DNA of 64,000 nt from an uncultured Gammaproteobacteria bacterium (GTDB taxonomy: Bacteria; Patescibacteriota; Patescibacteriia; Magasanikbacterales; UBA922), in assembly GCA_965231005.1 (NCBI GenBank), contig OZ246405.1, positions 231,204-295,203 of the forward strand, given 5' to 3'. Below, in pieces: positions 16,206-61,688 of this stretch. Under the pieces are notes generated by a model. It saw only the letters and a program-made list of their open reading frames with translations, made no database searches and was not told the origin of the DNA. The stretch's first letter is position 1; the number at the start of each line of letters is the position of its first letter. A program made the translations under genes and the position numbers.

Positions 16206-17714
16206 ATGCAAAACCCCAGTACTGTGACTGACTGCCCGAACGTGATTGATGGCAAAAAAATCAGAGGATCCTCTGATCGCGGAGTCACCCAGACCAACCC
16301 AGCTGACACTCGCATCAATGTGAGCCAGCGCTGGGACAGCACTCGTGAAGATGCGTTCGATGCTGTTGCAACAGCCGAAGGAGCTTTCCCTTTCTGGGCC
16401 GCAACTCCTGCACCTGCCCGCGCCGAGATCATTCGAAGAGCTACAGAACTGATGGCCGGAAAACTGCACGAGCTGTCCATGGCCATGGTCGCGGAAATCG
16501 GCAAGACGCGTGTAGGTGCGCGAAACGAAGTCAAGAAGACCATCAAGATCGGCAACTTCATGGCCGGACTCGGCAGTCAGCCTTCTGGCTACGTGGTCGA
16601 GCCGTGGCAGCCTGGCGTGAGCATGTACACGCGTCGCGTGCCGCTCGGCGTGGTCTGCCTGATCACTCCGTTCAACTTCCCGCTCGCTGTTTCCTGGTGG
16701 AAGATCGCCCCTGCCATCATCGCTGGCAACACAGTCGTGTGGAAGCCTTCGCCGTTCGCCCCGATCACATCGTGCATGATCATGGATCTGCTGACTGAGG
16801 CTGGCCTGCCGCCTGGTGTTGTCAACCTGGTTCACGGCGGTCCGGCTGTGGGAGAGGCCTTTGTCAAAAACCCGGCTGTGGAGGCAGTGTCGTTCACTGG
16901 TTCGACCAAGATCGGTCGCCAAATCGCTGTTGATGCGATCATGCGCGGGCTTGACCCGGGCAAGATCCTGTGCGAGATGGGTGGACAGAACGCTGTGGTC
17001 GTTCGGCCGAGCGCCAACCTCAATGCCGCTGCACAAGCCATTGTGGATGGTGCGTTCAAAGGCGAAGGCCAGCGCTGCACTGCAACCAGCCGTGCGATCA
17101 TCCATTCATCGGTGTACGAACAAATGCTGGGCCTGATCTCTGATAAGACCAGCACGCTGGTCGTTGGTCCTGGGACTGACCCGAAGAGTCAGGTCGGTCC
17201 TCTGGTCTGCAAGCATGCCCGCGATAGCGCGGTCAGCAAGATCGATGATGCTTTCATGAACGGCGGCATGGGAGTGCTCTGCGGTGGCAATAGGCTGACG
17301 GGAGACATTCACGAGCACGGCTGCTTCATGGAGCCAACCATTCTCACCGGCGATCCGACCAATCCCGACCACACCCTGTTTCACGAAGAAGTGTTCGGCC
17401 CTGTATTGGCCGTCTGCAGAGGTGACAACATGGACACCGTGCTGCGTCTCGTGAACAGCACCGACCACCGACACGTGGCTTCGATCTTCACCGGTGAACT
17501 GCGAGAAGCACTCGACTTCGTCGACGGCGCCAACGTGGGCATGGTGCATGTGAACAACTTCACGTTCGGCGGTGATGAGCACGCTGGCTTTGGCGGCCTG
17601 GGTGGAGCGACCAGCTTTGGTCCCAAGGAAATGGGCCCTGACTGCCTCGACTTCTTCACCCGACCCAAGACCGTGGACATCAACTACGGAGACGCACCCG
17701 CACCCGGGCGCTAA
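16206..17714 (+). CDS. NAD(P)-dependent aldehyde dehydrogenase family protein (high-GC islet)
   Basis: 502 aa. It has the ALDH motifs FTGSTKIGRQI and EMGGQNAVVV and the catalytic Cys in GQRCTA. The SD agggag lies 7 nt upstream. Its GC content is far above that of neighbouring genes. Confidence 0.85.
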   Translation: MQNPSTVTDCPNVIDGKKIRGSSDRGVTQTNPADTRINVSQRWDSTREDAFDAVATAEGAFPFWAATPAPARAEIIRRATELMAGKLHELSMAMVAEIGKTRVGARNEVKKTIKIGNFMAGLGSQPSGYVVEPWQPGVSMYTRRVPLGVVCLITPFNFPLAVSWWKIAPAIIAGNTVVWKPSPFAPITSCMIMDLLTEAGLPPGVVNLVHGGPAVGEAFVKNPAVEAVSFTGSTKIGRQIAVDAIMRGLDPGKILCEMGGQNAVVVRPSANLNAAAQAIVDGAFKGEGQRCTATSRAIIHSSVYEQMLGLISDKTSTLVVGPGTDPKSQVGPLVCKHARDSAVSKIDDAFMNGGMGVLCGGNRLTGDIHEHGCFMEPTILTGDPTNPDHTLFHEEVFGPVLAVCRGDNMDTVLRLVNSTDHRHVASIFTGELREALDFVDGANVGMVHVNNFTFGGDEHAGFGGLGGATSFGPKEMGPDCLDFFTRPKTVDINYGDAPAPGR

Positions 17715-26307: not shown

Positions 26308-26451
26308 ATGAATGCAATACTTTACAGTATGATATCACAAAAGTCAATTTGACATTCAATTATCAGTGTAGTAATCTATGTATAACAATTCAAAAGTATC
26401 AAGAAGGACAGAGGGAAATGGCCCGTTGACGTCCTACCAACCTAGTGCACA

Positions 26452-26560
26452 GTTTGACAACCTCGACTCACTGCGATAAGGTGGTACATCCATCCCAGCA
26501 AGGGAACGATACGCTCTAAAAGAGAAAAAAATCTTCTTGCTGCTTGCAAGTTTTTTTGAT
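26452..26560 (+). ncRNA. candidate small RNA transcription unit (promoter to terminator, no ORF)
   Basis: TTGACA-N17-TAAGGT at 26452-26480 is followed by about 80 nt with no ATG-initiated ORF. This is followed by the hairpin cttgctgcttgcaag and a T7 run at 26536-26558. Confidence 0.3.
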
Positions 26561-26642: not shown

Positions 26643-27965
26643 ATGCCACATGTTTTCCTTGGAAATTTTGACCAATTCTTCGATGGTCCGCCAACTCGAA
26701 AAGACGCTCACAAGATCTTTCGTCTTGGAGACAGAATCACGCACAATACTGTCGAAGTAGCAGGGTTTGACCCTGACTCAGTCGGCATTCTTCCTTCGCA
26801 GCCAAGCCGAGAGTACCTCAGCTACCTCCAGCACCAGCTCTACCGCTGTGGGAGCAGCCTGCCAAGATTTGTCGCACCAACCACTGTTGATCCAAATCGA
26901 CTGTGTCTGGCAAAGGCGCTTCTTGAAGACAAAGCACTCATGAGGGAGCTGAAGAGGAAAAAAGGCTGGGTCGTTCATGGCCTGATTTCTTCTCCTGACC
27001 TGACAGAAGTCGCAGAAGCCCTCGGCGGAACGGTTGCACCGATGACAGACCGTGCTATGCGAGCAGGAATCGCCATGCGCATCCGCAGCAAGGGCTGGTT
27101 CAAGGCAATCTGCAGTCGAAAGGACATCAACATCAGGACTCCAGAAGGCGTGTGTGTTGATTCGATTGGAAACGCTGCACATGTTTGCCTTAATCGGCTT
27201 GAGCGTGACATCGATCTGATGCTCAGAATCGACATCTCTGCTGGTGGCCTGGGCAACCTCGAGTTTCTTCGAAGTCTCTTCGATGGCGAGCTCTCATTCA
27301 GAACGGTTCTCGCAACGCTTCAGCACAAAAGCCCAGAGTCTTGGGCTGGCAAGCTCATTCATGTCGAAACCAATCACGAGACTGTTCACGACCTGGCAAG
27401 CGTCTACTACGTCGATGACGAAGGACCCAAATTCCAGTGCCTGGTCGACCGAAAGGTCAAAAAGGGTGAGTCTGGAGGAGCAATCTGGCCCTCGACCTGC
27501 CCTGAGCCGCAAGCACAGGAAATCCGACAGGCGTCTGATCGGTTCATGCAACTTCTCTGGAACATTGGATACCGTGGCTGGGCAGACATTGACTGGGCGA
27601 TTCTCAAAGATGGAAGCATCATGGCCTTTGAGTGCAATGCGCGCTGGCTGGCCACGAACGCTCTCCTGTCCATGCTGAATCGACACGAACTCAATATGAG
27701 CCAGCTTGCTGGGGAAAGCATCGACTACCTGAAACTGCCGCACCATGTTGACCAAGCACAATTTTCTGCCTTCATGCTGCGAGGAAACCAACCTACAAAC
27801 AGGCGAATGTGGACTCAGGCAGAAATCATGATTCCAGCTCAGAACGGTTCAGCGTCTCTGGTCATTCTTGGCCAGGATGCAGACAGCATCGATCTGAGAA
27901 AGCGACAGATCTACTCATGGTGTAGGGAAGGCTCAAGCCCAAAAAAGCCGCGTGCAGCACTCTAG
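26643..27965 (+). CDS. ATP-grasp-like ligase family protein A (high-GC islet)
   Basis: 440 aa. The C-terminal IGYRGWADIDWAILKDGSIMAFECNARW carries the ATP-grasp E-x-N-x-R metal-binding motif. The SD aagggggt lies 6 nt upstream. It is a paralog of the 35514..36854 gene. Confidence 0.6.
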   Translation: MPHVFLGNFDQFFDGPPTRKDAHKIFRLGDRITHNTVEVAGFDPDSVGILPSQPSREYLSYLQHQLYRCGSSLPRFVAPTTVDPNRLCLAKALLEDKALMRELKRKKGWVVHGLISSPDLTEVAEALGGTVAPMTDRAMRAGIAMRIRSKGWFKAICSRKDINIRTPEGVCVDSIGNAAHVCLNRLERDIDLMLRIDISAGGLGNLEFLRSLFDGELSFRTVLATLQHKSPESWAGKLIHVETNHETVHDLASVYYVDDEGPKFQCLVDRKVKKGESGGAIWPSTCPEPQAQEIRQASDRFMQLLWNIGYRGWADIDWAILKDGSIMAFECNARWLATNALLSMLNRHELNMSQLAGESIDYLKLPHHVDQAQFSAFMLRGNQPTNRRMWTQAEIMIPAQNGSASLVILGQDADSIDLRKRQIYSWCREGSSPKKPRAAL

Positions 27966-28733: not shown

Positions 28734-29648
28734 ATGACTATGCCTAAACCAGAACGCTATTCAATCAAGGACTTCAGACGCGACTTCGGTGACGATGACG
28801 CGTGTTTAAAGTACCTATTTGAGACGTATTATGAAGGGTATTCATGTCCTAATTGCGGGCGTTCTGCGAAGTCATTTAAGCGAGTCAGAGGTCGCAAAGA
28901 TTACGCTTGCGCATGTGGCCACCAAATCCGACCATTGGCAGGGACGATCTTTCGGAAAAGCACCACACCACTTAGCGTCTGGTTTTATGCTATTTTCCTG
29001 TTCAGCCACTCGAAACATTCCATTACTGGAGCAGAACTTGCCCGTCAACTCGGAGTAACTGAAAAGTGCGCCTGGAGGATTGGAATGAAGATTCGATCAC
29101 TTATGGCGCAGAAAGACCCCCAGTATGCGGAGCGTACTGATGGAGTCTATGAGCTAGACGAGTGCTATATCGGTGGGGTGGTACGTAGGCGGAAAGGGTA
29201 TTTTAACAAAGACGGCTGGAAGCAACATGAAGACAAAAAAACCCCAGTATTTGGGATTTTGAAACGGGGTGGAGCAGTCTTTGCAAAGGTTGTTTCCGAT
29301 ACACAGCGACTGACACTTTCAAAGTATATCTTTAGGATGATTAAGGCTGGATCAGAAGTGAATACCGATGAGGCGTCAGTATATAGTGATCTAGGAAATC
29401 GGTATGTACACCGGACGGTTAATCACACAAAGAAAGAGTTTGTGTATAAGACGTGCTATACCAATTCACTAGAGAACTTCTGGCGATCTGTTAAGGATTG
29501 CTATCGTGTTCACAGGTACATTTCTCGCAAACACCTTCAGGCGTATGTTGATTACTGCGTGTTTCTTTACAATCACAGGAATGATCGTGTTCCGATCTTT
29601 CTGACCCTTCTTGGTCGTGCCTGCCAATCGCCTTATTTAAAAGACTAA
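28734..29648 (+). CDS. IS1595-family transposase (copy 1)
   Basis: 304 aa with an N-terminal zinc ribbon (CPNCG...CACGH) and an IS1595-type DDE catalytic region. The conserved C-terminus is ENFWRSVKD...YNHRN. Its GC content is intermediate. Confidence 0.8.
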   Translation: MTMPKPERYSIKDFRRDFGDDDACLKYLFETYYEGYSCPNCGRSAKSFKRVRGRKDYACACGHQIRPLAGTIFRKSTTPLSVWFYAIFLFSHSKHSITGAELARQLGVTEKCAWRIGMKIRSLMAQKDPQYAERTDGVYELDECYIGGVVRRRKGYFNKDGWKQHEDKKTPVFGILKRGGAVFAKVVSDTQRLTLSKYIFRMIKAGSEVNTDEASVYSDLGNRYVHRTVNHTKKEFVYKTCYTNSLENFWRSVKDCYRVHRYISRKHLQAYVDYCVFLYNHRNDRVPIFLTLLGRACQSPYLKD

Positions 29649-31944: not shown

Positions 31945-32817
31945 CTATTTCACCATCTCAGAAAGAAGATGAAGAAAAATTGGGAGTGGCGAATGACGAT
32001 GATTATAATGATACGCAATCTCATCCACATACCGCTGAAGATACTTCGGAGAAACAGAATGATACGTCCCAGAAATAGATCTCTTTAGCTGAGACCAAAA
32101 CCCTTCAATGGTATTTACATGGACTACGCCTCGGGCGTATTCTTTTTTTCCATGATTCACAGTTCCATGAGTGTACCGATGCTTCAATGTATCGTACACA
32201 GAGAACTCGTCAGTCATAACAATGGAATCCAGTTCTACCTGTTGTCGGATAAGTGGCATAACGGATGATCTTGTTGTATCTGCCACTGTTTTGGCGTAAA
32301 CGCCCCCACACCTCTTAGCAATCCCTACTACTGGTGTTTTATCTGTACCACGCCCTCTTTTGTGCTTTCTCTTACTCATATGCTTATTCCTGTCTGCTCC
32401 ACCTACATACGTCTCATCTATCTCAAATACCCCTATATCTTTCTTAGGGTCTTGTCCCATTAACTTGCGTATCTCCTTTGCCATTCTCCACGCTGTCTTA
32501 TATGTTACCCCCACATGACGCTCTATTTCCTTGGCAGATACCCCATTTTTAGACTGGCTCATAAGAAAAATGGCAAAAAACCACAAATTCAATGGTGTAC
32601 TAGACTTTTCAAAGATCGTCCCCTTTAAAGGATGAATTTGAAAACTACACCACTGACAAGAATAGCACTTCCGCTTTGAAACCCTATGGAATTTTGACTT
32701 CTTATGCTTGCACTTTGGACAAGTAAACGCTTGACCAAACTTCTTATTAAAGATATACTCTAAACAAGTAATATCATTTGGAAACTCTTTTTTAAGCCTA
32801 GATATAGTATATTTCAT
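31945..32817 (-). CDS. IS1595-family transposase (copy 2, low-GC)
   Basis: 290 aa with a zinc ribbon (CPKCKH...CQWC) and the same conserved blocks as copy 1 (about 45 % identity by eye), ending in ...EGFWSQLKR...YNHRH. Confidence 0.8.
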   Translation of the reverse strand: MKYTISRLKKEFPNDITCLEYIFNKKFGQAFTCPKCKHKKSKFHRVSKRKCYSCQWCSFQIHPLKGTIFEKSSTPLNLWFFAIFLMSQSKNGVSAKEIERHVGVTYKTAWRMAKEIRKLMGQDPKKDIGVFEIDETYVGGADRNKHMSKRKHKRGRGTDKTPVVGIAKRCGGVYAKTVADTTRSSVMPLIRQQVELDSIVMTDEFSVYDTLKHRYTHGTVNHGKKEYARGVVHVNTIEGFWSQLKRSISGTYHSVSPKYLQRYVDEIAYHYNHRHSPLPIFLHLLSEMVK

Positions 32818-35513: not shown

Positions 35514-36854
35514 TTATCCACCGACTCGATGTCGCACTTCCTGAAGCAGCTCTTGCACTCGCAGTGCTGCGTTTTTGTTTCTACCATGACGAGACATTGC
35601 CACGAGACTGAACTTGCCAGGAAGCAAACCTGTCATCAGCGGCAACACACCTTCGTCACCATCTGGAAGTAGATCTTTGATGGTTCGCTGCAGCTCAGCA
35701 AAGTCACTTACAGCACCCGAGGCTGGCCACACATTGCTCATGAGCACTGCCCATGCACCACCATGCGCTGCTTCGAGTTGATTGAGTACTGACTTGGGAT
35801 ACTGCGACGCAGTCATGCGCGGATTTGGATCCACGAACCGCCAGTCAAGCATTTGCCCGTTTCTCATTGCCGTGATTTCGTCGCGAGTCAGGTCAGTGTG
35901 ACTACCGAACTCAGTCTTTTTTCCGCAAATGCCAATGGCATCGCAGCCAATCTGACCTCGATAACCCATGAGCCACCAGATTTGTGCAATCCTTCGTCCA
36001 CGACGTTGCAAACACGCAAGATCGAACTTGCTGAAACCTGGGAGTGCATCTGCACTTGCAACCAAGTTGCCAGCATGATCTTTTCCGTGAAGAATGATCT
36101 GCGCGTTGACAAACACGTCCTCAACACCGTCGTCTGTCAAAGACATTTGCACTGCAGCATCGACAATGTCTGCGTATCCAGCTTCTGCCAGAATCTCAGT
36201 ACCTTGTCCATTGCAGTGCTCACGACCGTAGCCGTCAATGTCTGCCTGTGTTCTGACAATTGCAGTACCAACACCAGAAGCCCAGGCATCCCGCTTGAAA
36301 ACAGAAAAGTCCGGAGACTTGATAGTGTGGTTCACTCGCATGAGCGTTGCATGTGCTGCATGAAGTTCTGCTGCACTCGAGCAAATGCGAGCAGGAACAA
36401 CAATGTAGTCCATGCCGCAAAGACGAGCCATTCTGTGAAACGCAATCTTCGATTCGATTTGCTGCGTCACCGATGCTTTGGCGCTCCACACGTGCTGAGA
36501 TGAAAGTCCCAGCTCGCACGTCACATCAGCTTCACGCTGACCAACATAGAAGTACTGCAGTCGCAGGTCACCTTGAGACCGAACATGATGTTGAATCGTG
36601 TCTGCATGTCTGCCAGAAGTGACACCGCCGTATACATCCTCAAGCGGTACAACGTGCTCTGCACCAAGGCCGTTTTTCCTCCACAAACGATGCTCGTTTG
36701 GGATCTCTCCAGTGGCAGAAACGAATGCGATTGGCACGTCCATGGAAATGCCGCGGCCGCCGTATGGACCAACATTGAGCCCTGGCAAAAAGCCAAAGGC
36801 ACTTTCTAGGCACCATACGCCGACCAGAGCTGGTCGCTTTCTTTTATGTCCCAT
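35514..36854 (-). CDS. ATP-grasp-like ligase family protein B (high-GC islet)
   Basis: The start is at ATG 36854 (MGHKRKRPALVG...), which has the SD aaggggaaag. The C-terminal LMGYRGQIGCDAIGI block is homologous to protein A (IGYRGWADIDWAIL). The opposite-strand ORF 35853..36503 is an antisense artefact of the high GC content. Confidence 0.55.
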   Translation of the reverse strand: MGHKRKRPALVGVWCLESAFGFLPGLNVGPYGGRGISMDVPIAFVSATGEIPNEHRLWRKNGLGAEHVVPLEDVYGGVTSGRHADTIQHHVRSQGDLRLQYFYVGQREADVTCELGLSSQHVWSAKASVTQQIESKIAFHRMARLCGMDYIVVPARICSSAAELHAAHATLMRVNHTIKSPDFSVFKRDAWASGVGTAIVRTQADIDGYGREHCNGQGTEILAEAGYADIVDAAVQMSLTDDGVEDVFVNAQIILHGKDHAGNLVASADALPGFSKFDLACLQRRGRRIAQIWWLMGYRGQIGCDAIGICGKKTEFGSHTDLTRDEITAMRNGQMLDWRFVDPNPRMTASQYPKSVLNQLEAAHGGAWAVLMSNVWPASGAVSDFAELQRTIKDLLPDGDEGVLPLMTGLLPGKFSLVAMSRHGRNKNAALRVQELLQEVRHRVGG

Positions 36855-37273
36855 TGTTCTTTCCCCTTGTGTTGAACGTGAATGGATAAAAGCTCTTTTT
36901 GTTAATAAGAGCCTTCTAAGATGTACAGCATACACCTGAGTAGGCTCTTATTTTTCTGGATTAGGTTACTACAGAAAATTGATTTGAGCAAGATTTGTAA
37001 TGAACGAAATAAAAAACACCGCTGAGCGGTGATTCTTTTGTATGTCTTATTTACTTAAGCACATGTACAAAAACCACCGCTTCTGGTGAGAAGGAGGAGG
37101 TTTAGGAGAAGATGTGATTTGTGCCTCATATTCATATATTTTTATCCTAGCACGACGTGTTTGATCATGCAAGTAAAACAAAAAAAGTCCAAAAATGGAC
37201 TTCTTTTGTTGGCGCCCAAGTTTATTAGACTCAGGCACCCTCCTTTTTCTTGATTTTCCTTGTACTGTGATGA

Positions 37274-38875
37274 CTACTCTCCGACGGCCATCAGCTGAAC
37301 CAGACCGAAGAGCCAAAGCGCATGATCAGACAGCTGCTGCATGGACGTGAGCTCCTTCTCACTCTCGGGCGCGAAGTAGCCCGTACCGAGATTGACAAGG
37401 CCGATCTTGTTGTCCAGGAATGCGTCAATACCAGTGCCACCGCGAATCGGTGTGACGTTCACCGGGAGTCCGAGCTGCTCTGCAGCCTCGACTGCGAATT
37501 CACGGAGGTGAAGGAAGGACTGCATCTCAGGCCCCATGTTGCGGTACTGAGGAGTCAGCTCCACGAAGACCAGCTCATGATCGTGCTGGAGCTGGAGCAA
37601 GTCCAGTCCGCGTCGATTGAACCCCTCTTCAGTGAAGTCACGAATGCGGAAGAAAAGATGCCAGCCATTTCCATCTTCGTCCGGCTTGATATCGAACGGA
37701 TTGGTGTAGCCCTGGAATCCCTCGCTGTCTTCCGGAAGAACCGGCTGAGTGACCCGATCATGGCAGAGGAAATCCCAGACAAGACCGAACAACCGATCCA
37801 GACTCTTGTCGAGCGAGTCCACAACTGGAGAATCCTTGTGCAGTTCGAGCCGAGCACCGAGAGGTTGGTGCATCTCGAGCTGACCGCGAATCAGGTCGAG
37901 CGCTCGATCCAACGCATCGTCAGCAGCCGCTTCATCATCATCTTCGAAGCAGTAGGAGAGGCAGACATCTGCAACACACTCGTTGAGCGGATCACCCTTG
38001 AAATCACTGACCCACACACGACCCATCTGCTCGTGGACACGAGCGAGCACAGTGATTGGATTCAGACCGCGCTCAGCCTTGGCAGTTGCACCGTGCGTCT
38101 TCACACCGTGGATGCGAATACGCTGGGTCATGATTTCCTCGCTGCCGTTGTTGTCACCACCCCAGGTCTTCATGTGCACATCACCGAGCGCAGCATTGAA
38201 GTTCTCCAGACTGATCTCAAACGAGGCAATGCCGTCGACTGTGTACCCATGCGTCACACCCTGTGCTGCCAGCCACTTGGCCAGGTCAGCAACAGCTTCG
38301 TCTCGACCGATTTCCTCGTCAGCCCGACCAATGATGTAGATCGGCGGGTGAGGGGCGTCTTTGTTCGTGTGAAGCAGGTGTGCCAGGGTCATGAGATGGG
38401 TCAGGCCGAGTTTGTCGTCCAAACCGAACGGCGCCTTTCCAGGACCGTGCAGCACATCCTGCCCCACAAAGCCGTCGAGTTCTGGGTAGAGGTCGAGCGA
38501 GACGTTGATGTTGCTGTTCAGCGAGTAGTTGAGAGGCGAACCATTCCACTTGGGAACCTTGGTCAAAACCTCAACAGCTTCAGTGCCCTTTGCTGTATCC
38601 ATGTGAATCATGAACGCAACAGGCGGAGCATCAGAGTGGCGGGCACGCTTGTAAGCGATCATATTGCCTGTCTTCTCGCGCACTTTTGCTTGAAATCCTC
38701 GAGCGCGGAAGAAGACCTCGAGCATCCTGGCGAGCTCGAGCTGGCCTGTGGTGCTCGGAATCGTCTGACTGTGTTCGTCACTCTGAGAATCGATTCTCAG
38801 TGCCTTCATCAGGTGCATGTGTGCGACCATCGCGATAGCCGAAGCAGACTGAGTCGGAAGAATAAACTGGCTCAT
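37274..38875 (-). CDS. M20-family metallopeptidase, peptidase T (PepT)-like, with insertions (high-GC islet)
   Basis: The start is at ATG 38875 (MSQFILPTQ), which has the SD aggagg. The M20 metal-ligand motifs are present: AFMIHMDTAKG, GLDDKLGL, IGRADEEIG and IRGGTGIDAF. The opposite-strand 526-aa ORF was rejected. Confidence 0.65.
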   Translation of the reverse strand: MSQFILPTQSASAIAMVAHMHLMKALRIDSQSDEHSQTIPSTTGQLELARMLEVFFRARGFQAKVREKTGNMIAYKRARHSDAPPVAFMIHMDTAKGTEAVEVLTKVPKWNGSPLNYSLNSNINVSLDLYPELDGFVGQDVLHGPGKAPFGLDDKLGLTHLMTLAHLLHTNKDAPHPPIYIIGRADEEIGRDEAVADLAKWLAAQGVTHGYTVDGIASFEISLENFNAALGDVHMKTWGGDNNGSEEIMTQRIRIHGVKTHGATAKAERGLNPITVLARVHEQMGRVWVSDFKGDPLNECVADVCLSYCFEDDDEAAADDALDRALDLIRGQLEMHQPLGARLELHKDSPVVDSLDKSLDRLFGLVWDFLCHDRVTQPVLPEDSEGFQGYTNPFDIKPDEDGNGWHLFFRIRDFTEEGFNRRGLDLLQLQHDHELVFVELTPQYRNMGPEMQSFLHLREFAVEAAEQLGLPVNVTPIRGGTGIDAFLDNKIGLVNLGTGYFAPESEKELTSMQQLSDHALWLFGLVQLMAVGE

Positions 38876-38974
38876 TGTGGACCTCCTGGTCTTGGGTTTT
38901 GAGCGACCCTTGTGAAAATCGAACCGCATCAATAAAACCAGTTTTTTAGCACTTTGTCAAGAAGAAAAATGCGC

Positions 38975-42126: not shown

Positions 42127-42194
42127 AGAAGTGTGTAGCGTGTAGTGTTTACGTATACTTTCGTTACATCTATTTATTTTTAATTCATACACGT

Positions 42195-42626
42195 ATGAAA
42201 AAACTCATATGTTGTGGTGATCCTGCAAACATGAAGAAGTGGGGACTATTTCTCCTTCGTCTTTCTGTAGGTCTTATCTTCATCTATCACGGATGGGGTA
42301 AGCTCACCAACATTGAAGCAACCATTGGTTTCTTCACATCACTAAGTTTTCCAGGTGCAGCCTTTTGGGCATACTTGGTCGCGCTTATTGAGTTCTTGGG
42401 TGGTCTAGCAGTTGTACTCGGAATCTGGGTACGTTTTGCTGCAAAACTCCTTGCAATCATCATGATTGTGGCACTTCTCACAGTCCACATGAAGATGGGA
42501 TTTGCACAATCAGAGCTCGTTATCGCATTGCTTGGTTCAACCCTCGCCATTTCCATGCTTGGTGGTGGAGACTGGCAATGGATGAAAGACAACGAGTGCG
42601 TCCCAATGTGTGTTTCGAAGAAGTAG
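42195..42626 (+). CDS. DoxX-family membrane protein
   Basis: The start was trimmed to MKKLICC after the upstream stop. It has four TM helices with the YHGWGKL and LIEFLGGLAVVLGIW DoxX-like pattern. Confidence 0.6.
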   Translation: MKKLICCGDPANMKKWGLFLLRLSVGLIFIYHGWGKLTNIEATIGFFTSLSFPGAAFWAYLVALIEFLGGLAVVLGIWVRFAAKLLAIIMIVALLTVHMKMGFAQSELVIALLGSTLAISMLGGGDWQWMKDNECVPMCVSKK

Positions 42627-42644
42627 AAGACACATATATACTGA

Positions 42645-42673
42645 AAATCTCCCTAAAAATGGGAGATTTTTTG
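42645..42673 (+). terminator. Rho-independent terminator
   Basis: aaatctccctaaaaatgggagatttttt. Confidence 0.7.
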
Positions 42674-42768
42674 TTTGGAGCCAGGTATTTAGCTTTACAA
42701 AGCAGTATTTTTGTGGTACGCTCGCCACAGAACACATACACGGCCAATCCATGGCCTAAGGGGGTAGT

Positions 42769-43500
42769 ATGATGTCTTCACACGATACAAACGTATCTAG
42801 TGGCAGCGCAGTTTCAACACCGCGCCGATCTGGATCACAGAAGATGCGCGCAAGGCCTGCACGTCTTCCAAGAGCACAGCATGCATCAGTGCGAACTGCA
42901 CTCGAAGAATGTTGGAAACGGTTCGCACCAGAAGGAACAACACTGACTAACACTGCTGACGGACGAGAGCCAGTACTCCTTCGTTCCTTCCTCATGCTGA
43001 TAATGCACGAAGTTGTTTTCATGAGCGTCGAGGACATTGCAGAACTGCTTGGCTCAAGAAACTCACAAGGGGTTCACTACCAGATCCAGGCTCTTCGATC
43101 CAAAATCAGCCAAGATCCAAGCCTGACCGTGCGTATCAATGAGACTGCTGCTCTGTTCTTCGACACCTCGCCGTCTCTGATCTATGCAAAACCAAGCCAA
43201 GTGGTTGCTGCTGTCTCTGAGCACTATCGCACGCCAAGAAATGATCTGCTCAAAAAAGAAGACGGCAGAAAAGAGACGCGAGAGCGACAAATCCTGATGT
43301 ACATGCTCAGAACGCATGCTCGCATGAAGTTCAGGCAGATCAAGGAAATGCTAGGGATCAGAAACCGACAAAATGTACACCAGGCAATTGGCGGCGTCCA
43401 ACGAAAGATCGAATCAGATCCTGACGTTGCTGATGAAATCCGCCACATCGCTGGTAAACTTCCGCAACAGAGCCACATCAGCGACACAGAGGCTGCATGA
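42769..43500 (+). CDS. protein composed of two tandem DnaA C-terminal (domain IV, Bac_DnaA_C-like) HTH domains, no AAA+ domain (high-GC islet)
   Basis: Repeat 1 is RSFLMLIMHEVVFMSVEDIAELLGSRNSQGVHYQIQALRSKI. Repeat 2 is RERQILMYMLRTHARMKFRQIKEMLGIRNRQNVHQAIGGVQRKIESDPDVADEIRHI. Both align with this window's own DnaA domain IV ([38 protein letters not shown]). The SD aagggggt is present upstream. Confidence 0.6.
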   Translation: MMSSHDTNVSSGSAVSTPRRSGSQKMRARPARLPRAQHASVRTALEECWKRFAPEGTTLTNTADGREPVLLRSFLMLIMHEVVFMSVEDIAELLGSRNSQGVHYQIQALRSKISQDPSLTVRINETAALFFDTSPSLIYAKPSQVVAAVSEHYRTPRNDLLKKEDGRKETRERQILMYMLRTHARMKFRQIKEMLGIRNRQNVHQAIGGVQRKIESDPDVADEIRHIAGKLPQQSHISDTEAA

Positions 43501-43594
43501 TTCAGACATCATACAAACAACACAAGGAGGGTGGAGGTGGTTGCAAATCATCTCTCACCAACTACACTCTTTTAACAAAAGATTGTTGAGGAAT

Positions 43595-43623
43595 AAAAAA
43601 TCTCCAAAGCGGAGATTTTTTGT
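43595..43623. terminator. bidirectional terminator between the DnaA_C-domain gene and polA
   Basis: aaaaaatctccaaagcggagattttttg. Confidence 0.7.
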
Positions 43624-43634
43624 TTGTTTAACTG

Positions 43635-46484: not shown

Positions 46485-46555
<71 letters not shown>

Positions 46556-46561
46556 CAATTT

Positions 46562-47314
46562 ATGAAACTCACCATCCTTGTTGAAAACCAAACAAGCAGA
46601 ACAAACAATAAACTCTGTGCATCTGAGTGGGGATTTTCTGCTTTTCTTGAAATAAAAAATATTAATATCCTTTTTGATTCAGGACATTCAGATATTTATA
46701 AGAAAAATGCAAAAAATTTGGGAATTGATCTTGAAAAAACAGATGTTGTTATCCTTTCTCATTATCACTGGGATCATGCAAAAGGATTACTTCACCATGA
46801 GTTTAAGACAAAGAAAAAGCTGATACTTCATCCGCATGTTCTTGAAAAAATTACTGAAGAAGAGGCAACGAAATTTAAAAACGACTTTGAAATTATTTCA
46901 ACAGAAGAAGTACTTGAGTTTAGTCCTGATATATTTTTCTTAGGACAAATTCCACGAGTAACACCATTTGAAAAAGGAATGGCAAAAGGAGAACACATGT
47001 TTGATGATACTGCACTTGCCATTAAGACGGACAATGGAGTTGTTGTGTTAACTGGATGTTCTCATTCTGGGATTGCTAATATTTGCAAATACGCAACAAA
47101 AATTACAGAACAAAAATTGTATGCTGCACTCGGCGGATTTCATTTATTTGAGACTGATCCAAAAGGTGTTGCCGGTGCAATTGAATATTTTAAAAAAGAA
47201 AAACCAAAACACTTATATCCAATGCACTGCATTGATCTTCCAACACTTGCTTCATTTTATAATGAATTTGGAATTATAAAATATGGAGCTGGAGATACGA
47301 TTGAGATTGAATAA
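46562..47314 (+). CDS. metallo-beta-lactamase-fold hydrolase
   Basis: It has the HYHWDHAKG (HxHxDH) motif. The ORF track start at 46499 overlaps the tRNA, so the start was trimmed to MKLTILVEN at 46562. Confidence 0.7.
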   Translation: MKLTILVENQTSRTNNKLCASEWGFSAFLEIKNINILFDSGHSDIYKKNAKNLGIDLEKTDVVILSHYHWDHAKGLLHHEFKTKKKLILHPHVLEKITEEEATKFKNDFEIISTEEVLEFSPDIFFLGQIPRVTPFEKGMAKGEHMFDDTALAIKTDNGVVVLTGCSHSGIANICKYATKITEQKLYAALGGFHLFETDPKGVAGAIEYFKKEKPKHLYPMHCIDLPTLASFYNEFGIIKYGAGDTIEIE

Positions 47315-48905: not shown

Positions 48906-49547
48906 CTACTCGTCGTCAACAGGGGTGTACGGATCGCACCAGTCCAACCTGTGGTTACGCGTGTTTGCGTGCTGCGCCCTGAGCCTGAGGGTCTCGCCAA
49001 ATCCCCGTGCGAATTTGAAGTTGCCCTGGACAGGAATGATCAACCGAAAGCCCTTGAGCAGAAGCGTTTTGGCATTCGCGATCTCTCGGTCACCAGACCG
49101 CCGATCCTTGTCGATCTTGTCGATGGCACGCGCGACGTAGAACCCTGCCTTGGCCGAAGCGTTGACGAGCCTGTCCCGTTGCCTGGTCCTGATGTCGAGC
49201 TTTTCCTTCAGGCGGTCTTTCTCTGCCTCCAGCGGTTCGAACTTACCACGAAGCGTCTGGGTCTCTGCCTGAGCCGCTGCGAGCTTGCCCTGCGTTTCAT
49301 CCAGATCTTGCTTCATCGCAGACCCAAACTTGTGCGCCTCAACAAGAAGCAGTATCAGACCCACAATGACGACCATGAAGAACACAAATGTGATGATGAA
49401 CATACCACCCGTGTACTGAACCTCACCATCTACATCTGAAATCAGCGCCAGGACGACTATTGCTGAAACGGCCAAAAAGCCGAGCACCGCAATAAACCCG
49501 ACAAAAAGGTGGAGAGCCTTCCGCATCTCCATGCCGAACAGTTTCAT
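48906..49547 (-). CDS. hypothetical membrane protein with coiled-coil (high-GC islet)
   Basis: The start is at ATG 49547 (MKLFGMEMRKALHLF), which has the SD agagagg. It has two TM helices, a coiled coil (KQDLDETQGKLAAAQAETQTLRGKFEPLEAEKDRLKEKLD) and a C-terminal domain. A terminator lies at 48808-48835. Confidence 0.55.
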   Translation of the reverse strand: MKLFGMEMRKALHLFVGFIAVLGFLAVSAIVVLALISDVDGEVQYTGGMFIITFVFFMVVIVGLILLLVEAHKFGSAMKQDLDETQGKLAAAQAETQTLRGKFEPLEAEKDRLKEKLDIRTRQRDRLVNASAKAGFYVARAIDKIDKDRRSGDREIANAKTLLLKGFRLIIPVQGNFKFARGFGETLRLRAQHANTRNHRLDWCDPYTPVDDE

Positions 49548-49748
49548 GTTAACCTCTCTTGTGCATTGCACAGAAGTCGCTCCACAAATCTTGACGACCG
49601 GCCTCTTTCGGCCTAAGGCTGTGTTGATCATGCTGGCCTTGTCCAACACAATCAACGACAGGTCCCTCTCCCGTCGTATTTGCTTTGCTACGTTTGCTCC
49701 AATTGAGCATAAAGCACTCTTTGGTAAGAGTGCTTCTGCTTAATTAGA

Positions 49749-53563: not shown

Positions 53564-53668
53564 GGAATATTTTACGCAATCAAAAAAGCACCCGAAAAGG
53601 TGTTTTTTAGATTGACAGCTCAATCTCATATTGCTAGGATAACTTATCCTCAGACAAAAGGAGTTTAC

Positions 53669-54115
53669 ATGGAGACCAACAATAGCCGCCGTACTCGTCA
53701 CATCTTGTCAGGAATCATTTTCGCATCTATACCAATCATCTTGTGCGTTGGCGCAGCAAACAACCACGGATACTGGCAGGCAACACTCCAGGACTTGAAC
53801 GACGCAAATATGGCACTCGAGGAAATCGAAGGTCTACTTGAGTCGCTTCATTGTTTTGAACGTGAAGCTGGCTTTCCAAAGAAACATATTGATGAACGAG
53901 AACTTGCGATCCTCGAAGTTCAGAAAACGACCAGAGAAACTAGGAAAGCCATTGAAAAAAACAAAGAGCTCCCTTGGTACGAAACCTTGATCTTCAGCTA
54001 CGCAACAAGGTCTCACATAAGTGGTTTCAAATACCACTGGTTTCTCAAGAGGAGAAAACTACTGATCCTGGTCAAGGATCGACTTGTTGCTGGAAAAGAG
54101 TGTTTGAGGACCTAG
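53669..54115 (+). CDS. hypothetical membrane protein (moderately GC-enriched, own SD and terminator)
   Basis: The start is at METNNSRR with the SD aaggag. It has one TM helix. A hairpin lies at 54142-54170 and a terminator at 54185-54215. Confidence 0.45.
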   Translation: METNNSRRTRHILSGIIFASIPIILCVGAANNHGYWQATLQDLNDANMALEEIEGLLESLHCFEREAGFPKKHIDERELAILEVQKTTRETRKAIEKNKELPWYETLIFSYATRSHISGFKYHWFLKRRKLLILVKDRLVAGKECLRT

Positions 54116-55484: not shown

Positions 55485-56609
55485 TTACTGCCGAATAGGC
55501 ATGACAATATATAAATAACTTTCATCACCCTTTCCTCTAAACATACATGGCATTTCACTGCTGTTCAAAAGAAACTCTACATCTGTTCCATTAATATGTT
55601 GTAAACCATCCAGCACATAGCGATGGTTTAATAAAATTGAATTTTCTTCCCCAGAAACATCAGCATCTACAACAGAGGAGTGCTCTCCTGTTTGTGCACT
55701 TGTAGAAGAAACAGCAATATTGTTTTCAGAAGCATTTACATCAAAAGAAACAGCGTTTATTCCATTTGTTGTAAACAAACTAGCAGCCTTAATATGTTTT
55801 ATCGTTGTATCAACAGGAAGTGTTGCTGTTGTTTTAAATGAACTAGGAATAATTTGTGTGTAATCTGGATATTTCCCATCTACAAGACGACTTGTCATTT
55901 CAAAACCATTGTAGCGAATTGCAATTTGATTATCACTTACCCACAAACGAACATCGCTTTCTGATTGTTCGCCCTTTGAAAGACCAATTACTTTAATCAT
56001 TTCAGAAACAGTCTTAATAGGAACAATACAAGAAACTTCATCTTCACCTTGTTTTACTGGAATCTTCTTCTCTGCCAGTCTATATGAATCTGTGGCAGCA
56101 AGCACAAGCTCTTTATTTCCCCCTGTAAGCAGTCCAAAGTATGTTCCGGCTAGCTCGGGTCGTATTTCGTTTCTTGCGGCTGCTATGAGCACTTTTGAGA
56201 GAGAATCTTTAAATAATTGTGCATCCAATAGATAATGATGATTTTCTTCTATCTCTGGAATAACAGGGAACTCCTCATCTGATTGTCCTTTTATTTTTGT
56301 ACTAGAGCTTCCAGCTCGTACTTCAAGTTCATTTTCTTTTAATTCAATTTCAATACTATTGTCTGAAATAAGTTGCACAACATCATTGAGTGTTTTTGCT
56401 GGTACAGTAAACGATCCTGTCTTATCTACTTTTGCTCGAACATTCATGCGAAGTGCTATTTCAAGATCTGTAGCAATAAGCTCTACATTTGATTCTTTTG
56501 CATGAATTAAAATGTTAGAGAGGATTGGTAAGTTTCCACCTCTCCCTGCAACACTGTTTATGAGGTTTAGTGCGTGTGAGAAATTTTCTTTGGTGCTTGT
56601 GAATAACAT
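55485..56609 (-). CDS. dnaN: DNA polymerase III beta subunit (sliding clamp)
   Basis: 374 aa with the three-domain clamp pattern (N-terminus MLFTSTKENFSHALNLINSVAGRGGNLPILSNILI). It lies immediately downstream of dnaA. Confidence 0.9.
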   Translation of the reverse strand: MLFTSTKENFSHALNLINSVAGRGGNLPILSNILIHAKESNVELIATDLEIALRMNVRAKVDKTGSFTVPAKTLNDVVQLISDNSIEIELKENELEVRAGSSSTKIKGQSDEEFPVIPEIEENHHYLLDAQLFKDSLSKVLIAAARNEIRPELAGTYFGLLTGGNKELVLAATDSYRLAEKKIPVKQGEDEVSCIVPIKTVSEMIKVIGLSKGEQSESDVRLWVSDNQIAIRYNGFEMTSRLVDGKYPDYTQIIPSSFKTTATLPVDTTIKHIKAASLFTTNGINAVSFDVNASENNIAVSSTSAQTGEHSSVVDADVSGEENSILLNHRYVLDGLQHINGTDVEFLLNSSEMPCMFRGKGDESYLYIVMPIRQ

Positions 56610-56882
56610 ACCTCTTTTCTTTTATTCTTATATATAAATATAAACGATAGTAATAGTAGGGGGTGTGAATAGCGGGGATAAGTAGAAAACTGTTGTAGGT
56701 TGAGTATAAAAAAGTGTTTTTCTATGTGTGTAAAACCTGAAATGAATTGTTTGTTAATTGCGGAAAACTTTTCACCTTTTTTATTTTCTGTTAATAACTT
56801 TTTTTTCTTTCACACCGTTTCCACAGAAAAATCCTTGGGTTATCAGATAGTTATAAACAGAGTTATTCAGGAATCCTGTGGA
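56610..56882. promoter_or_regulatory. dnaA-dnaN intergenic region with DnaA-box-like sequences (possible second half of a bipartite oriC)
   Basis: CGGGGATAAG, TTTCCACAG, GGTTATCAGATA and TGTGGATTA are all visible in an AT-rich context. Confidence 0.45.
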
Positions 56883-58265
56883 TTAAATGCTTTCTGCGTA
56901 CAACTGTTGCTTTAAAACAACAAGGTCTTGTTTTAGTTTTGCGTCCTGTTCAATGTTTGAAGATATTTTTGTGTGTGCATGCATTGCTGTTGTGTGGTCT
57001 CGACCACCAAGTTCACCACCGATTGCCGGATAAGAAAGACGAAGTTCTTCACGAAGAAGATACATAGCAATTTGTCGTGGGAAAGAGAGTTTCTTTTCTC
57101 TGCTTTTACCAAGGACATCTACAATACTAATATCAAAGTATTTTGTTACCACTTCAATAACTTGTTTTGGTGTTACTGATCGTTTCATGCTCTGAGAAGC
57201 AAGACTATCTAGGATTGGTTTTACAGAAGCTTTACTTATTTCAATGTTTTTAAGTTCATGAAGGGCAATAATTTTGTTGAGTGCTCCTTCTAATTCTCTA
57301 ATATTGTTTTGGATTGCTTCTGCAATAAAGTACGCAATGTCTTCTGGAAGGAAAAATTGTCGTTCTTCTGCTTTTGACTGAAGAATTGCAGATCTCGTTT
57401 CAGTATCAGGAGTTGCAATATCTACGAGCATGCCCCATTCAAATCTACTTCTAAGACGATCTTCTAGCTTTGGAATGTCTTTTGGTGGGCGGTCACTTGT
57501 AAGGACAACTTGTTTGTTTTGTTGGTGAAGAGCATTAAATGTATGGAAAAACTCTTCCTGTGTTTGCTCTTTTCCAGCAATAAACTGAATATCATCAATA
57601 AGGAATAGGTCTACATTTCTATATCTATTTTTAAATTCACGTGCACGACCTTGTTTTACGGCTTCAATAAACTCATTTGTGAATTTTTCAGAACTCGCGT
57701 ACATAACACGTACTTGAGAGTCATTTTTTAGCATTTCATTTGCAATTGCTTGGAGAAGGTGGGTTTTTCCTAGTCCAACACCACCATATATAAAGAGGGG
57801 GTTATATGCCTGCCCGGGTCTGGTAGAAACAGCCTGGCAAGCAGCGTTTGCAAGTTCATTTCCTTTTCCAACAACATAGGAAGAAAAGGTATAATTTGGG
57901 TTAATACCAAATTTTTCTGCTTGAGTTGGTTGTTTTGGTCGTGCTGGGCGAGCTTGTACAGGAGGAGCAACAGGCTCTGGAGCGCTAAGTATAGCCTCTT
58001 TTTCAGTAATATTCTTTACACTTTCAACCCTATATTCGATCTTTTTTATTGGTTTTCCAGTGACTCTTTCAAGGGATTTTACTACTTCTGAGTGGAATTT
58101 CTTCTCTAGCCAGTTTCTTGTAAAGGCATTTGGGACGCAGATAATTGCTGATCCATTGTCATAATTAGAAATACCAGTATGACTAAACCATGTTGTAAAG
58201 CTCGCTTTAGATATTTTTAGTTCAAAATCAGCAAGAACAGCCTGCCAAATCTCATAGTTCGTCAT
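56883..58265 (-). CDS. dnaA: chromosomal replication initiator protein DnaA
   Basis: The start was trimmed to ATG 58265 (MTNYEIWQ). It has the AAA+ Walker A GGVGLGKTHLL and a domain IV HTH (RQIAMYLLREEL...GGRDHTTAMHA). Confidence 0.95.
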   Translation of the reverse strand: MTNYEIWQAVLADFELKISKASFTTWFSHTGISNYDNGSAIICVPNAFTRNWLEKKFHSEVVKSLERVTGKPIKKIEYRVESVKNITEKEAILSAPEPVAPPVQARPARPKQPTQAEKFGINPNYTFSSYVVGKGNELANAACQAVSTRPGQAYNPLFIYGGVGLGKTHLLQAIANEMLKNDSQVRVMYASSEKFTNEFIEAVKQGRAREFKNRYRNVDLFLIDDIQFIAGKEQTQEEFFHTFNALHQQNKQVVLTSDRPPKDIPKLEDRLRSRFEWGMLVDIATPDTETRSAILQSKAEERQFFLPEDIAYFIAEAIQNNIRELEGALNKIIALHELKNIEISKASVKPILDSLASQSMKRSVTPKQVIEVVTKYFDISIVDVLGKSREKKLSFPRQIAMYLLREELRLSYPAIGGELGGRDHTTAMHAHTKISSNIEQDAKLKQDLVVLKQQLYAESI

Positions 58266-58657
58266 ATTTTTGTGTTTATTTAGGTAAAAAATTATGTTTT
58301 TTAGTAAAAAAGTTGTGGATAAGGGGTAAAAAAAACTCCTTTTTTTCACTCCAGTACCATTTTAACATAGAAAAAGATATGGAAAAATGGCTTAACATAG
58401 CTAAAAAGTGAGTAAAATGGGGATAACTTGTGGACTATGGGGATAACTAGACGGGTTGACATCAAATATTCAAATATGCTTCAGCTTATTTCTATAGTGA
58501 AAAAAGTATGTCATAGAAAAAGTACTTCGTCCAATAATTTATGCAAAAGGGCATTTTTTACTAGTTTTTTAACATATCCCCTGTGGTTTGTGCCCAGACC
58601 TTGACTTTCTCTTCTTTTTTCTATATAATGTTGTGGCACAAGAAGTACAGAATATTA
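58266..58657. promoter_or_regulatory. putative oriC / dnaA promoter region with DnaA boxes and AT-rich tract
   Basis: A perfect TGTGGATAA box is at 58314-58322. Two TGGGGATAAC boxes 20 bp apart are at 58418-58447. AT-rich stretches lie between dnaA and rpmH, the classic origin location. Confidence 0.6.
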
Positions 58658-58843
58658 ATCTATAATATGCCTAAGAGAACGTATCAACCAAAAAAACGTA
58701 AACGCGCAAAAACGCACGGCTTTCGCAAACGAATGAGTACGAAAGATGGACAAGCTGTCCTAAAGAAAAGACGAACAAAAGGACGTAAAAAGCTTACCAC
58801 AAGTGATGAGAAAACAGGAAAGCGTCGACGTAAAACACGATAA
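58658..58843 (+). CDS. rpmH: 50S ribosomal protein L34
   Basis: [44 protein letters not shown]. The ORF track start was trimmed to this Met. Confidence 0.9.
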
Positions 58844-58901
58844 TAATATCCCCGGTTTTGACCGGGGTTTGTGTTATACTTAGAAAATAAAAATAATATA
58901 T

Positions 58902-60398: not shown

Positions 60399-60641
60399 TC
60401 AGGTCATGCAGACGCGTTCGACCGTGATCTTCTTCATGTGGTCGTAGCGGAGCGGCAGTCGACCGCCGGCCTTCTTGTTGAAAACGACACCGTTCTCGCC
60501 GAGGTCTTCGACGGTGCTGGAGTCGATCGTGCAGACGTTGCCGTCTGAAAGTTTGATCTTGAGTTGGCCGAACGGTCCAGCCTTATCGAGCTGGTGAACG
60601 AGAGATACGAACATTGGATGCATTATAGAAACCCCCTTGTG
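60399..60641 (-). CDS. small hypothetical protein (80 aa), high-GC islet
   Basis: My own translation from ATG 60641 gives MHPMFVSLVHQLDKAGPFGQLKIKLSDGNVCTIDSSTVEDLGENGVVFNKKAGGRLPLRYDHMKKITVERVCMT. The SD aagggggt lies 7 nt upstream. The 226-aa track ORF 60399..61079 is a read-through artefact. Confidence 0.55.
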   Translation of the reverse strand, partial: HKGVSIMHPMFVSLVHQLDKAGPFGQLKIKLSDGNVCTIDSSTVEDLGENGVVFNKKAGGRLPLRYDHMKKITVERVCMT

Positions 60642-60705
60642 TCCAACAGTGGACATACAATCTATATCATAGCACAGAGGTTTTGTCAAGTGTAAATACA
60701 TATTT

Positions 60706-61032
60706 ATGAATAACTTAAAAGCAATGCAACAGCAAGTTGCAGAAACATTTAAAAAATACGAAAGCCAGGGTACAGAACCTTGGACATTTGAAACTGCTGC
60801 ACAGGATTTGCAGTACCAAATTGGAAGCATTGCAAAGTGTGTGTTGCAATTAAAAAACAAACGCTTTGTAGAAGGCTTGTCTGAAGAGGAAATAAAGAGA
60901 GTTTTATCTGACGAGCTTGCAGATGTTATAGCAGATGTACTGTTTATTGCAGACGACCTTGGAATTGATATTGAACAAGCATGGGAAGGGATGCTGAGAA
61001 GTGATGATAAAAAAATTAAAGAAAGAACATAA
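60706..61032 (+). CDS. MazG-like nucleotide pyrophosphohydrolase
   Basis: 108 aa, all-alpha. The EExxxxxSDELADVIADVLFIADDLGID block is typical of the MazG/NTP-PPase fold. Confidence 0.6.
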   Translation: MNNLKAMQQQVAETFKKYESQGTEPWTFETAAQDLQYQIGSIAKCVLQLKNKRFVEGLSEEEIKRVLSDELADVIADVLFIADDLGIDIEQAWEGMLRSDDKKIKERT

Positions 61033-61148
61033 ACAAAAAAATACCTTGCTAGGTATTTTTTTGACTGATCCCGAACCACAATGGTGATGTGCGGCTCGGG
61101 AGAGCAGTCATCATACGTTAGTGGTTCAGGGTTTGGTTGTTGCTTCAG

Positions 61149-61688
61149 CTACTTCCACGGTCGCTTGAGCGCGTTTTCAAGATCGGTGTGCGAGAGCGAG
61201 AACTCCACAGTCATCGGATCAGGAGCAGTACGGCCCTGTTCATGGTCCATCATTGAGATGTGCCATTCGATCTTGTGTTTCCACGCCCATTCTACAGCGC
61301 GGACGAATTTTTGCACCTCGTCGTTGTTTGAAAAACGCATCGATGCTGTGATGTACACAATGCCAAAGTCCAGAGCCTTGCGTCCATTTTTGAGGACCAT
61401 TTGAGGTCTGACCGTGAGATCGAAACGGTATCCACACTCCAATTGGATTTGGGCTCGGAAGGTCTGCTTGGACTGGTCGAGCCGATCGTCCCAGGTCTCA
61501 GGATTCCTGCTATTTTCTCCATACACACCCATAGATTGGCATGTCGGCAGCTTCCAACGGATAGGTCGGAGAATCCCTCGGTGTGAACGTACGAGCTCAG
61601 GGCCGAACATGGCTTCCAGTTTCCGCATGAGACAGCGAACACTGAAAGGCATTTGACCGTTTTCAACAGTTTTGGTGGGCTTTGTCAT
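61149..61688 (-). CDS. hypothetical protein (179 aa), high-GC islet
   Basis: MTKPTKTVENGQMPF.... The SD aggagga is present upstream. It has no recognisable motif. Several antisense ORFs in this region were rejected. Confidence 0.5.
   Translation of the reverse strand: MTKPTKTVENGQMPFSVRCLMRKLEAMFGPELVRSHRGILRPIRWKLPTCQSMGVYGENSRNPETWDDRLDQSKQTFRAQIQLECGYRFDLTVRPQMVLKNGRKALDFGIVYITASMRFSNNDEVQKFVRAVEWAWKHKIEWHISMMDHEQGRTAPDPMTVEFSLSHTDLENALKRPWK

Follow-up and report, generated by a model that had tools for sequence, protein, structure and literature searches.

The stretch of DNA analysed here, referred to as the window, comprises 64 kb of contig OZ246405.1 from a Patescibacteria (candidate phyla radiation) bacterium, and it carries on its plus strand, at 42769..43500, an open reading frame (ORF) that encodes tandem copies of the DNA-binding domain IV of DnaA and no AAA+ module. 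The frame is 243 codons long when counted from the first of two adjacent ATG codons; public gene calls begin at the second (42772) and therefore give a protein of 242 aa. An earlier note on this DNA had described the product as a foreign-looking pair of domain-IV repeats and had proposed that it is encoded by a mobile element and competes with DnaA for its boxes. The description of the architecture was borne out by Pfam, by NCBIfam, by the match of one repeat to the other and by structural models, and we confirm that the protein consists of two DnaA domain-IV repeats, both with the domain-IV fold, plus a basic tail. On the plus strand, the chain opens with a Ser/Arg/Pro-rich N-terminal tail (aa 1-37; 42769..42879), followed by repeat 1, the more diverged copy (aa 38-131; 42880..43161), a linker of 10 residues placed from the secondary structure of the model (aa 132-141; 43162..43191), and repeat 2 (aa 142-231; 43192..43461), after which a short acidic tail ends the protein.

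When the whole protein was searched against Pfam, Bac_DnaA_C (PF08299) was the sole significant family, with two matching stretches (E=6.2e-13, 49 bits against a cutoff of 31.5), and no match to Bac_DnaA or DnaA_N was found. The true DnaA of the window (56883..58349, minus strand) contains Bac_DnaA, Bac_DnaA_C and DnaA_N. The NCBIfam DnaA models were matched only over their last ~90 positions and far under their cutoffs; in TIGR00362, for instance, positions 347-436 of 437 were aligned with 58 bits against a cutoff of 343.9. Since the Pfam and NCBIfam matches are confined to domain IV, the protein has neither the AAA+ module nor domain I, and the absence of any ATPase or oligomerisation module rules out a role as initiator. 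Compared with DnaA, it thus lacks domain I, the linker and the AAA+ domain III, and has domain IV twice per chain.

The two halves differ in how readily they are recognised. Scored singly against Bac_DnaA_C, the C-terminal half reached 37.8 bits (E=2e-9) and the N-terminal half 14.4 bits (E=0.04, under the threshold of 31.5). The same division was seen in the alignment to the window's own DnaA, which had been claimed for both halves: the C repeat matched strongly (29% identity over 83 aa, E=1e-8), the N repeat weakly (E=0.14). The identity of the N half was supported by other comparisons. By BLASTP it matched the C half with 34% identity over 70 aa (E=9e-12), and the best non-self match of repeat 1 was repeat 2. 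In an alignment with the C half and 22 further domain-IV sequences, the N half needed no gap anywhere in the domain. Using hhalign and an independent profile of 18 domain-IV sequences built without the protein, we obtained a probability of 94% (E=1.2e-7) for the N half and 99.6% (E=5e-24) for the C half, while the scores from a custom hidden Markov model (HMM) were 24.9 bits (N repeat) and 90 bits (C repeat). There was no Pfam match to a LuxR-type or sigma-70 region 4 domain at E<=0.01, the values for Trans_reg_C and HTH_20 being E=0.066 and E=0.086, and sigma region 4 structures appeared in Foldseek only at E >1. The only significant profile and fold matches are to Bac_DnaA_C and DnaA, which speaks against a generic helix-turn-helix of either kind.

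The predicted structure agrees with these assignments. In the full AlphaFold2 (AF2) model, the mean predicted local distance difference test (pLDDT) score was 73; repeat 2 scored ~96, and the N-terminal tail had low confidence (block means of 46-51) and was mostly unstructured, up to about residue 34. The best Foldseek matches of repeat 2 in the PDB were the DnaA DNA-binding domains solved with DNA from M. tuberculosis (3pvp_B; template-modelling (TM) score 0.87, root-mean-square deviation 2.0) and from E. coli (1j1v_A; TM 0.84, root-mean-square deviation 1.6). Repeat 1 was modelled separately with a pLDDT of 86, and all 12 of its 12 best PDB matches were DnaA, at TM scores of 0.62-0.78. Against the 1J1V and 3PVP chains, repeat 2 reached TM scores of 0.84-0.87 and repeat 1 of 0.73-0.77, and together with the above-threshold Pfam match this likeness ties the protein to DnaA domain IV.

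We then compared the residues by which DnaA reads its boxes, taking TTATCCACA and TGTGGATAA as the box sequences. The E. coli sequence of 1J1V was aligned by HMMER without gaps on residues 147-227, and the offset from repeat to repeat was fixed at 101, so that each E. coli position could be mapped onto both copies; the counts below refer to the corresponding columns in the 39 nearest relatives. DnaA of E. coli reads TnCACA through helix 434-451, placed in the major groove, and TTA through Arg399, a loop residue that enters the minor groove, and the substitutions R399A and T435M each render the protein defective in DnaA-box binding (PMC5742627). R399, which is Arg in 29 and Lys in 4 of the 39 relatives, is replaced by Asp in both repeats (D165 in repeat 2 and D64 in repeat 1), which is a reversal of charge. 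At the recognition helix, D433 (Asp in 31/39) has become N199 in repeat 2 and N98 in repeat 1; H434 (His in 35/39) has become R200 and S99; T435 (Thr or Ser in 35/39) is Gln in both (Q201 and Q100); T436 (Thr or Ser in 39/39) is replaced by N202 and G101; and H439 (His in 25/39) by Q205 and Y104. P423 corresponds to R189 in repeat 2 and E88 in repeat 1. The DnaA signature G-G-R-D-H-T-T-V-L-H thus corresponds to G-I-R-N-R-Q-N-V-H-Q in repeat 2 (aa 196-205) and to G-S-R-N-S-Q-G-V-H-Y in repeat 1 (aa 95-104), so that both the R-D-H-T-T-V-x-H signature and the minor-groove Arg399 are lost from both copies. The host DnaA retains the canonical set, with PRQ and R-D-H-T-T-A-M-H.

The remainder of the domain is better preserved. 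R401, R407 (invariant in 39/39), M411, I425, G430 and R432 are kept in both repeats, all but R401 counting among the features that join the protein to known domain IV. The two copies also have derived residues in common: the loop carries D-G-R, and the first part of the recognition helix R-N-x-Q-x-V-H. Together with the finding that repeat 2 is the best non-self match of repeat 1, these suggest that the change of signature preceded or accompanied the internal duplication. The isoelectric point (pI) is 10.3 for repeat 2, compared to ~9.5 for true domain IV, 12 for the N-terminal tail and 5.9 for repeat 1. DNA binding is thus probably retained, chiefly through repeat 2 and the tail, and the specificity for DnaA boxes probably is not.

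The foreign look of the gene was upheld by its composition. The ORF has a GC content of 0.50 and a GC content at third codon positions (GC3) of 0.48, against a GC3 of 0.19-0.31 in the core genes of the window (polA, dnaA, dnaN, ribosomal and ATP-synthase-type genes). The GC content is 0.50-0.55 over 42700-43500, 0.31-0.38 in most of the surrounding DNA and 0.43-0.48 in doxX just upstream. On one side, the gene is neighboured by holA, a DUF1003 gene, an NADH-dehydrogenase-like gene and doxX, and on the other by the convergent polA, with an MBL-fold gene also nearby. A terminator-like hairpin follows doxX on the plus strand (42644..42677; AAAATCTCCC / GGGAGATTTT, then a T run), and a second copy of this hairpin lies between the ORF and polA (43592..43626; AATAAAAAATCTCC / GGAGATTTTTTGTT), where it is probably the terminator of both. 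Each hairpin contains one copy of an exact 16-bp direct repeat, GGAGATTTTTTGTTTG: the left copy (42662-42677) forms the 3′ part of the first hairpin and the right copy (43611-43626) lies within the second. These are the only two occurrences in the window; the direct repeats that flank 300 random intervals reached at most 12 nt.

The repeats delimit an island of 949 bp that holds a single gene, and because an exact 16-bp repeat brackets it, acquisition of this one gene is plausible. The simplest reading of the arrangement would be a 949-bp single-gene insertion into the doxX/polA terminator, by which the terminator was duplicated. A pattern for the empty site (the 3′ end of doxX, one hairpin and the 3′ end of polA) gave no match, and from a control pattern it was clear that the collection searched does not include the organism. 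Among 185,579 species genomes, the best match to PolA had 47% identity and came from Falkowbacteria, and no relative of the gene was found at 48 PolA loci of Falkowbacteria and other Patescibacteria (<=47% identity), a distance too large for an insertion test. The further claim that the gene is encoded by a mobile element was left unproven, since no mobile gene adjoins it and the phage, plasmid and viral contigs searched yielded no close homolog.

We hold, slightly more than we doubt it, that the gene encodes an acquired, internally duplicated domain-IV protein that would bind DNA with changed specificity and act as a site-specific regulator. Since the box-reading residues are lost in both copies, a DNA-binding regulator with a new target is likelier than an origin blocker. 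According to this scheme, the gene would have arrived as a single-gene insertion that duplicated the doxX/polA terminator, and the DnaA domain-IV fold, with its basic loop and helix-turn-helix, would have been duplicated internally to give a single-chain DNA-binding protein. This protein may bind double-stranded DNA at a sequence other than TTATCCACA, with the basic repeat 2 as the putative main reader, while repeat 1 and the very basic N-terminal tail might engage a second, related half-site or make non-specific contacts. Its likely role would be that of a site-specific regulator, one that represses, for example, its own promoter or a small number of host genes, and a titration of the DnaA boxes of oriC would be unlikely.

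Several points weigh against this reading. In the slightly acidic repeat 1, basic positions have been lost (R405 to L and K415 to H, as well as Q408 to S), and by its sequence this copy may lack DNA binding altogether. The mapping of contacts presumes that the repeats would dock on DNA as DnaA domain IV does, and the fold match of repeat 1 is partly circular, because the alignment behind its model was built with domain-IV homologs. D433N also occurs alone in otherwise canonical relatives, so that single changes are tolerated. Since the protein is a singleton without orthologs, purifying selection cannot be demonstrated. Finally, a second assembly of this organism differs over 20.7 kb at one place only, an A versus C polymorphism at 43034 (plus strand), which lies inside this gene, is non-synonymous, and changes Asp89 of repeat 1, the position of E. 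coli E424, to Ala.

This polymorphism also lends some credit to the idea that the gene is a functionless or decaying orphan, a recently acquired piece of some longer domain-IV array or mobile-element gene that is under no selection and has no cellular role. The atypical composition fits such an origin, as do the degeneracy of repeat 1, with its pI of 5.9 and its Pfam score under the threshold, and the results of the searches for relatives. A word-index search returned the protein itself only, and an exhaustive HMMER search of 1.84 billion protein representatives gave 53 proteins at E<=0.001, of which only the protein itself lay below 1e-30; both public copies stem from a single project, from two of its runs, and one lies on a 1.23-Mb contig. 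We nevertheless consider this explanation unlikely, if the most serious of those set against the regulator. The frame of 243 codons is intact and shows the signs of a working gene, with terminator hairpins of its own on both flanks and a strong ribosome-binding site: a Shine-Dalgarno-like AAGGGGG, read from the sequence at 42758..42764 (plus strand), is separated from the ATG at 42769 by 4 nt and from that at 42772 by 7 nt. The predicted fold is of high confidence, and the residues of the structural core and the shared derived motif persist despite the low identity of about 26-34% between the repeats.

Most of the 53 matches were single-domain proteins (94-224 aa) or full-length DnaA. Stand-alone proteins annotated as DnaA C-terminal, known from uncultured tailed phages and bacteria (79-224 aa), resemble the present protein in having domain IV without the ATPase, but have one domain instead of two, and none exceeds ~36% identity over a single repeat. 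Most of them keep R399 and RDHTT, and thus may read DnaA boxes. Such proteins also make up most of the matches in a library of viral structures. Six of the matches were metagenomic arrays of domain IV only, and these share with our protein the tandem repeats and the absence of an AAA+ module but are remote from it, at 21-31% identity. By the custom HMM, P0003 has 2 repeats, P0002 has 5, P0011 and P0024 have 7, and P0004 (L004 853-3528) and P0021 have 9. The last four are metagenomic proteins of 730-891 aa that comprise 7-9 tandem, partly degenerate domain-IV repeats and nothing else. In P0002 and P0003, unlike the present protein, the DHTT-type signature is largely kept. The halves of P0003 are 63% identical, compared with 34% for the repeats studied here, so that its duplication was independent.

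Domain IV is usually treated as a dedicated reader of DnaA boxes. That its fold is found here duplicated, detached from the ATPase and altered at every base-reading position suggests that it can be reused as a general DNA-binding module. A match to Bac_DnaA_C on its own thus predicts neither binding to DnaA boxes nor interference at the origin, and the signature residues need to be checked first. A bolder proposal, to which we would give little weight, is that proteins of tandem domain-IV repeats, 2 to 9 per chain in metagenomes, make up a hitherto unrecognised class of modular DNA readers, of which the present protein would be a minimal representative. Every repeat in such a class would recognise a short site of its own, and its recognition residues could diversify freely; the acquired two-repeat version, with R-N-x-Q-x-V-H, might then control host genes or replication through a bipartite site other than a DnaA box. 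In the full-text literature we found no characterisation of stand-alone or tandem domain-IV proteins and no description of arrays of up to nine repeats, and as far as we could find, the architecture of 7-9 repeats exemplified by P0004 is uncharacterised. These arrays are the most interesting lead of this analysis.

The competition with DnaA that the earlier note had put forward, in which the two domain-IV modules would occupy boxes in oriC or the dnaA promoter and thereby block or tune initiation in the host, now appears improbable. The fold is indeed that of the DNA-binding domain of DnaA, domain IV alone carries sequence-specific binding and is sufficient for it in isolation (PMC5835720), and single-domain DnaA C-terminal proteins are common in uncultured phages. 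The window also contains a canonical origin region, with rpmH, dnaA and dnaN at about 55.5-58.9 kb (55485-58900) and a minimum of the cumulative GC skew near 56 kb. The note's placing of box clusters about 13 kb from the gene was roughly right, in that a modest cluster of five DnaA boxes with <=1 mismatch, one of them perfect (58314), lies near dnaA in 56598-58446; in the window as a whole, 21 boxes against 18.9 expected amount to no enrichment, and the scan found none near the gene. The non-coding DNA of the island and the intergenic DNA flanking dnaA have no word of >=10 nt in common, and their 16 shared 8-mers, against ~7 expected by a rough estimate that ignores AT bias, are mostly A/T-rich and form no clear excess. 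Moreover, neither repeat keeps a single base-reading residue, R399 having given way to Asp and T435 to Gln, at the two positions where R399A and T435M abolish box binding in E. coli (PMC5742627), while the host DnaA keeps the canonical set and repeat 1 has a pI of only 5.9.

Inhibitors of initiation that act by occupying oriC or by binding DnaA include Spo0A, CtrA, SeqA, SirA, YabA, Hda and the prophage protein YfdR (PMC4776307, PMC10201431). The present protein could be likened to these only in the functional idea of a non-initiator that interferes at the origin, and nothing here ties it to oriC. To our knowledge, none of these inhibitors uses the DnaA domain-IV fold.

A poor prospect, too, is that the gene is the remnant of a replication or maintenance system of a mobile element, such as an accessory protein binding an origin or iterons, whose partner genes have been lost. 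An argument for it comes from the genes around the best-scoring relative, the five-repeat P0002. In its region (L003 5293-10022, on a contig of 61% GC), P0002 is preceded by a primase-like gene, a stand-alone domain-IV gene encoding 124 aa and two small ORFs, and close by are genes for a tyrosine integrase, an Xre-like regulator and a RecD2-like helicase. This region looks like the replication module of an integrative element, and no DnaA boxes were found in 18 kb around P0002. The similarity of P0002 to the protein is remote, however, at 23% identity. Single-domain versions are abundant in phages, with dozens of DnaA C-terminal proteins from uncultured tailed phages in a library of viral structures, and the island is flanked by a direct repeat. 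Searches of PHROGs gave nothing significant, IMG/VR and the PADLOC defence models gave no match, and tblastn found four weak single-domain matches in phages and one in plasmids. Against a remnant, no iteron-like repeats were found around the gene and no integrase, transposase or phage gene adjoins it; nothing else mobile lies in the island or within ~10 kb, the nearest such genes being transposases at 28.7 and 31.9 kb. Very improbable, finally, is a protein-binding module that would affect replication indirectly by binding DnaA, an Hda-like protein or another partner through domain-IV surfaces: Leu423 and Pro424 of E. coli domain IV, as the review numbers them (here Leu422 and Pro423), have a part in Hda binding (PMC5742627) and repeat 1 is not basic, but the equivalent Pro is not conserved (R189 / E88), the strongly basic character of repeat 2 and of the N-terminal tail is what nucleic-acid binding would lead one to expect, and no partner gene is linked.

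The transposases just mentioned are two IS1595-family genes (28734-29648, plus strand, and 31945-32817, minus strand), which have opposite orientations, lie ~2.3 kb apart and ~10-14 kb from the gene, and could delimit a composite element.

Upstream of the ORF, a speculative promoter and operator may be read on the plus strand at 42694..42729, with TTTACA, a 17-nt spacer that contains TG (TGn, of the extended -10 type) and TACGCT. These elements are overlapped by an inverted repeat, TGTGG-N8-CCACA (42712-42729, plus strand). A scan for consensus promoters upstream of the ORF flagged none, this site included. A perfect 11-nt inverted repeat also surrounds the ORF, with one arm, GTATGATGTCT, at 42767-42777 over the ATGATG start and the other, AGACATCATAC, at 43504-43514, 4 nt past the stop codon. 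It might let the 5′ end of the mRNA pair with the 3′ end and so mask the start codon, or it may have arisen by chance; the probability of such a placement by chance is ~6e-4 by a rough, post hoc estimate.

Elevated GC3 is not restricted to this gene. About a dozen genes in the window have a GC3 of 0.42-0.68, among them an aldehyde dehydrogenase, a PepT-like peptidase (under cutoffs), DoxX, an IS1595 transposase and several proteins without a family. Genes of atypical GC3 lie at 13909-14310, 16206-17714, 26643-27965, 28734-29648, 35514-36935 and 37274-38932, and further ones at 42194-42626, 48906-49655, 53600-54115, 60399-61079 and 61149-61688. Gene-by-gene acquisition from a source richer in GC thus seems to be common in this genome. 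The ORF at 26643-27965 encodes 440 aa, is likewise GC-rich and stands directly downstream of a SAM riboswitch (Rfam RF00162, 50.5 bits; 26393-26515), which would place it under the control of SAM; it matched no Pfam or NCBIfam family and gave a weak hint of a pre-ATP-grasp domain (E=0.004). At the MBL-fold ORF (46499-47314), a tRNA-Cys gene (46485-46556) overlaps the first listed GTG start, and since public calls start the gene later (250 aa), the listed start, which gives 271 aa, is probably wrong.

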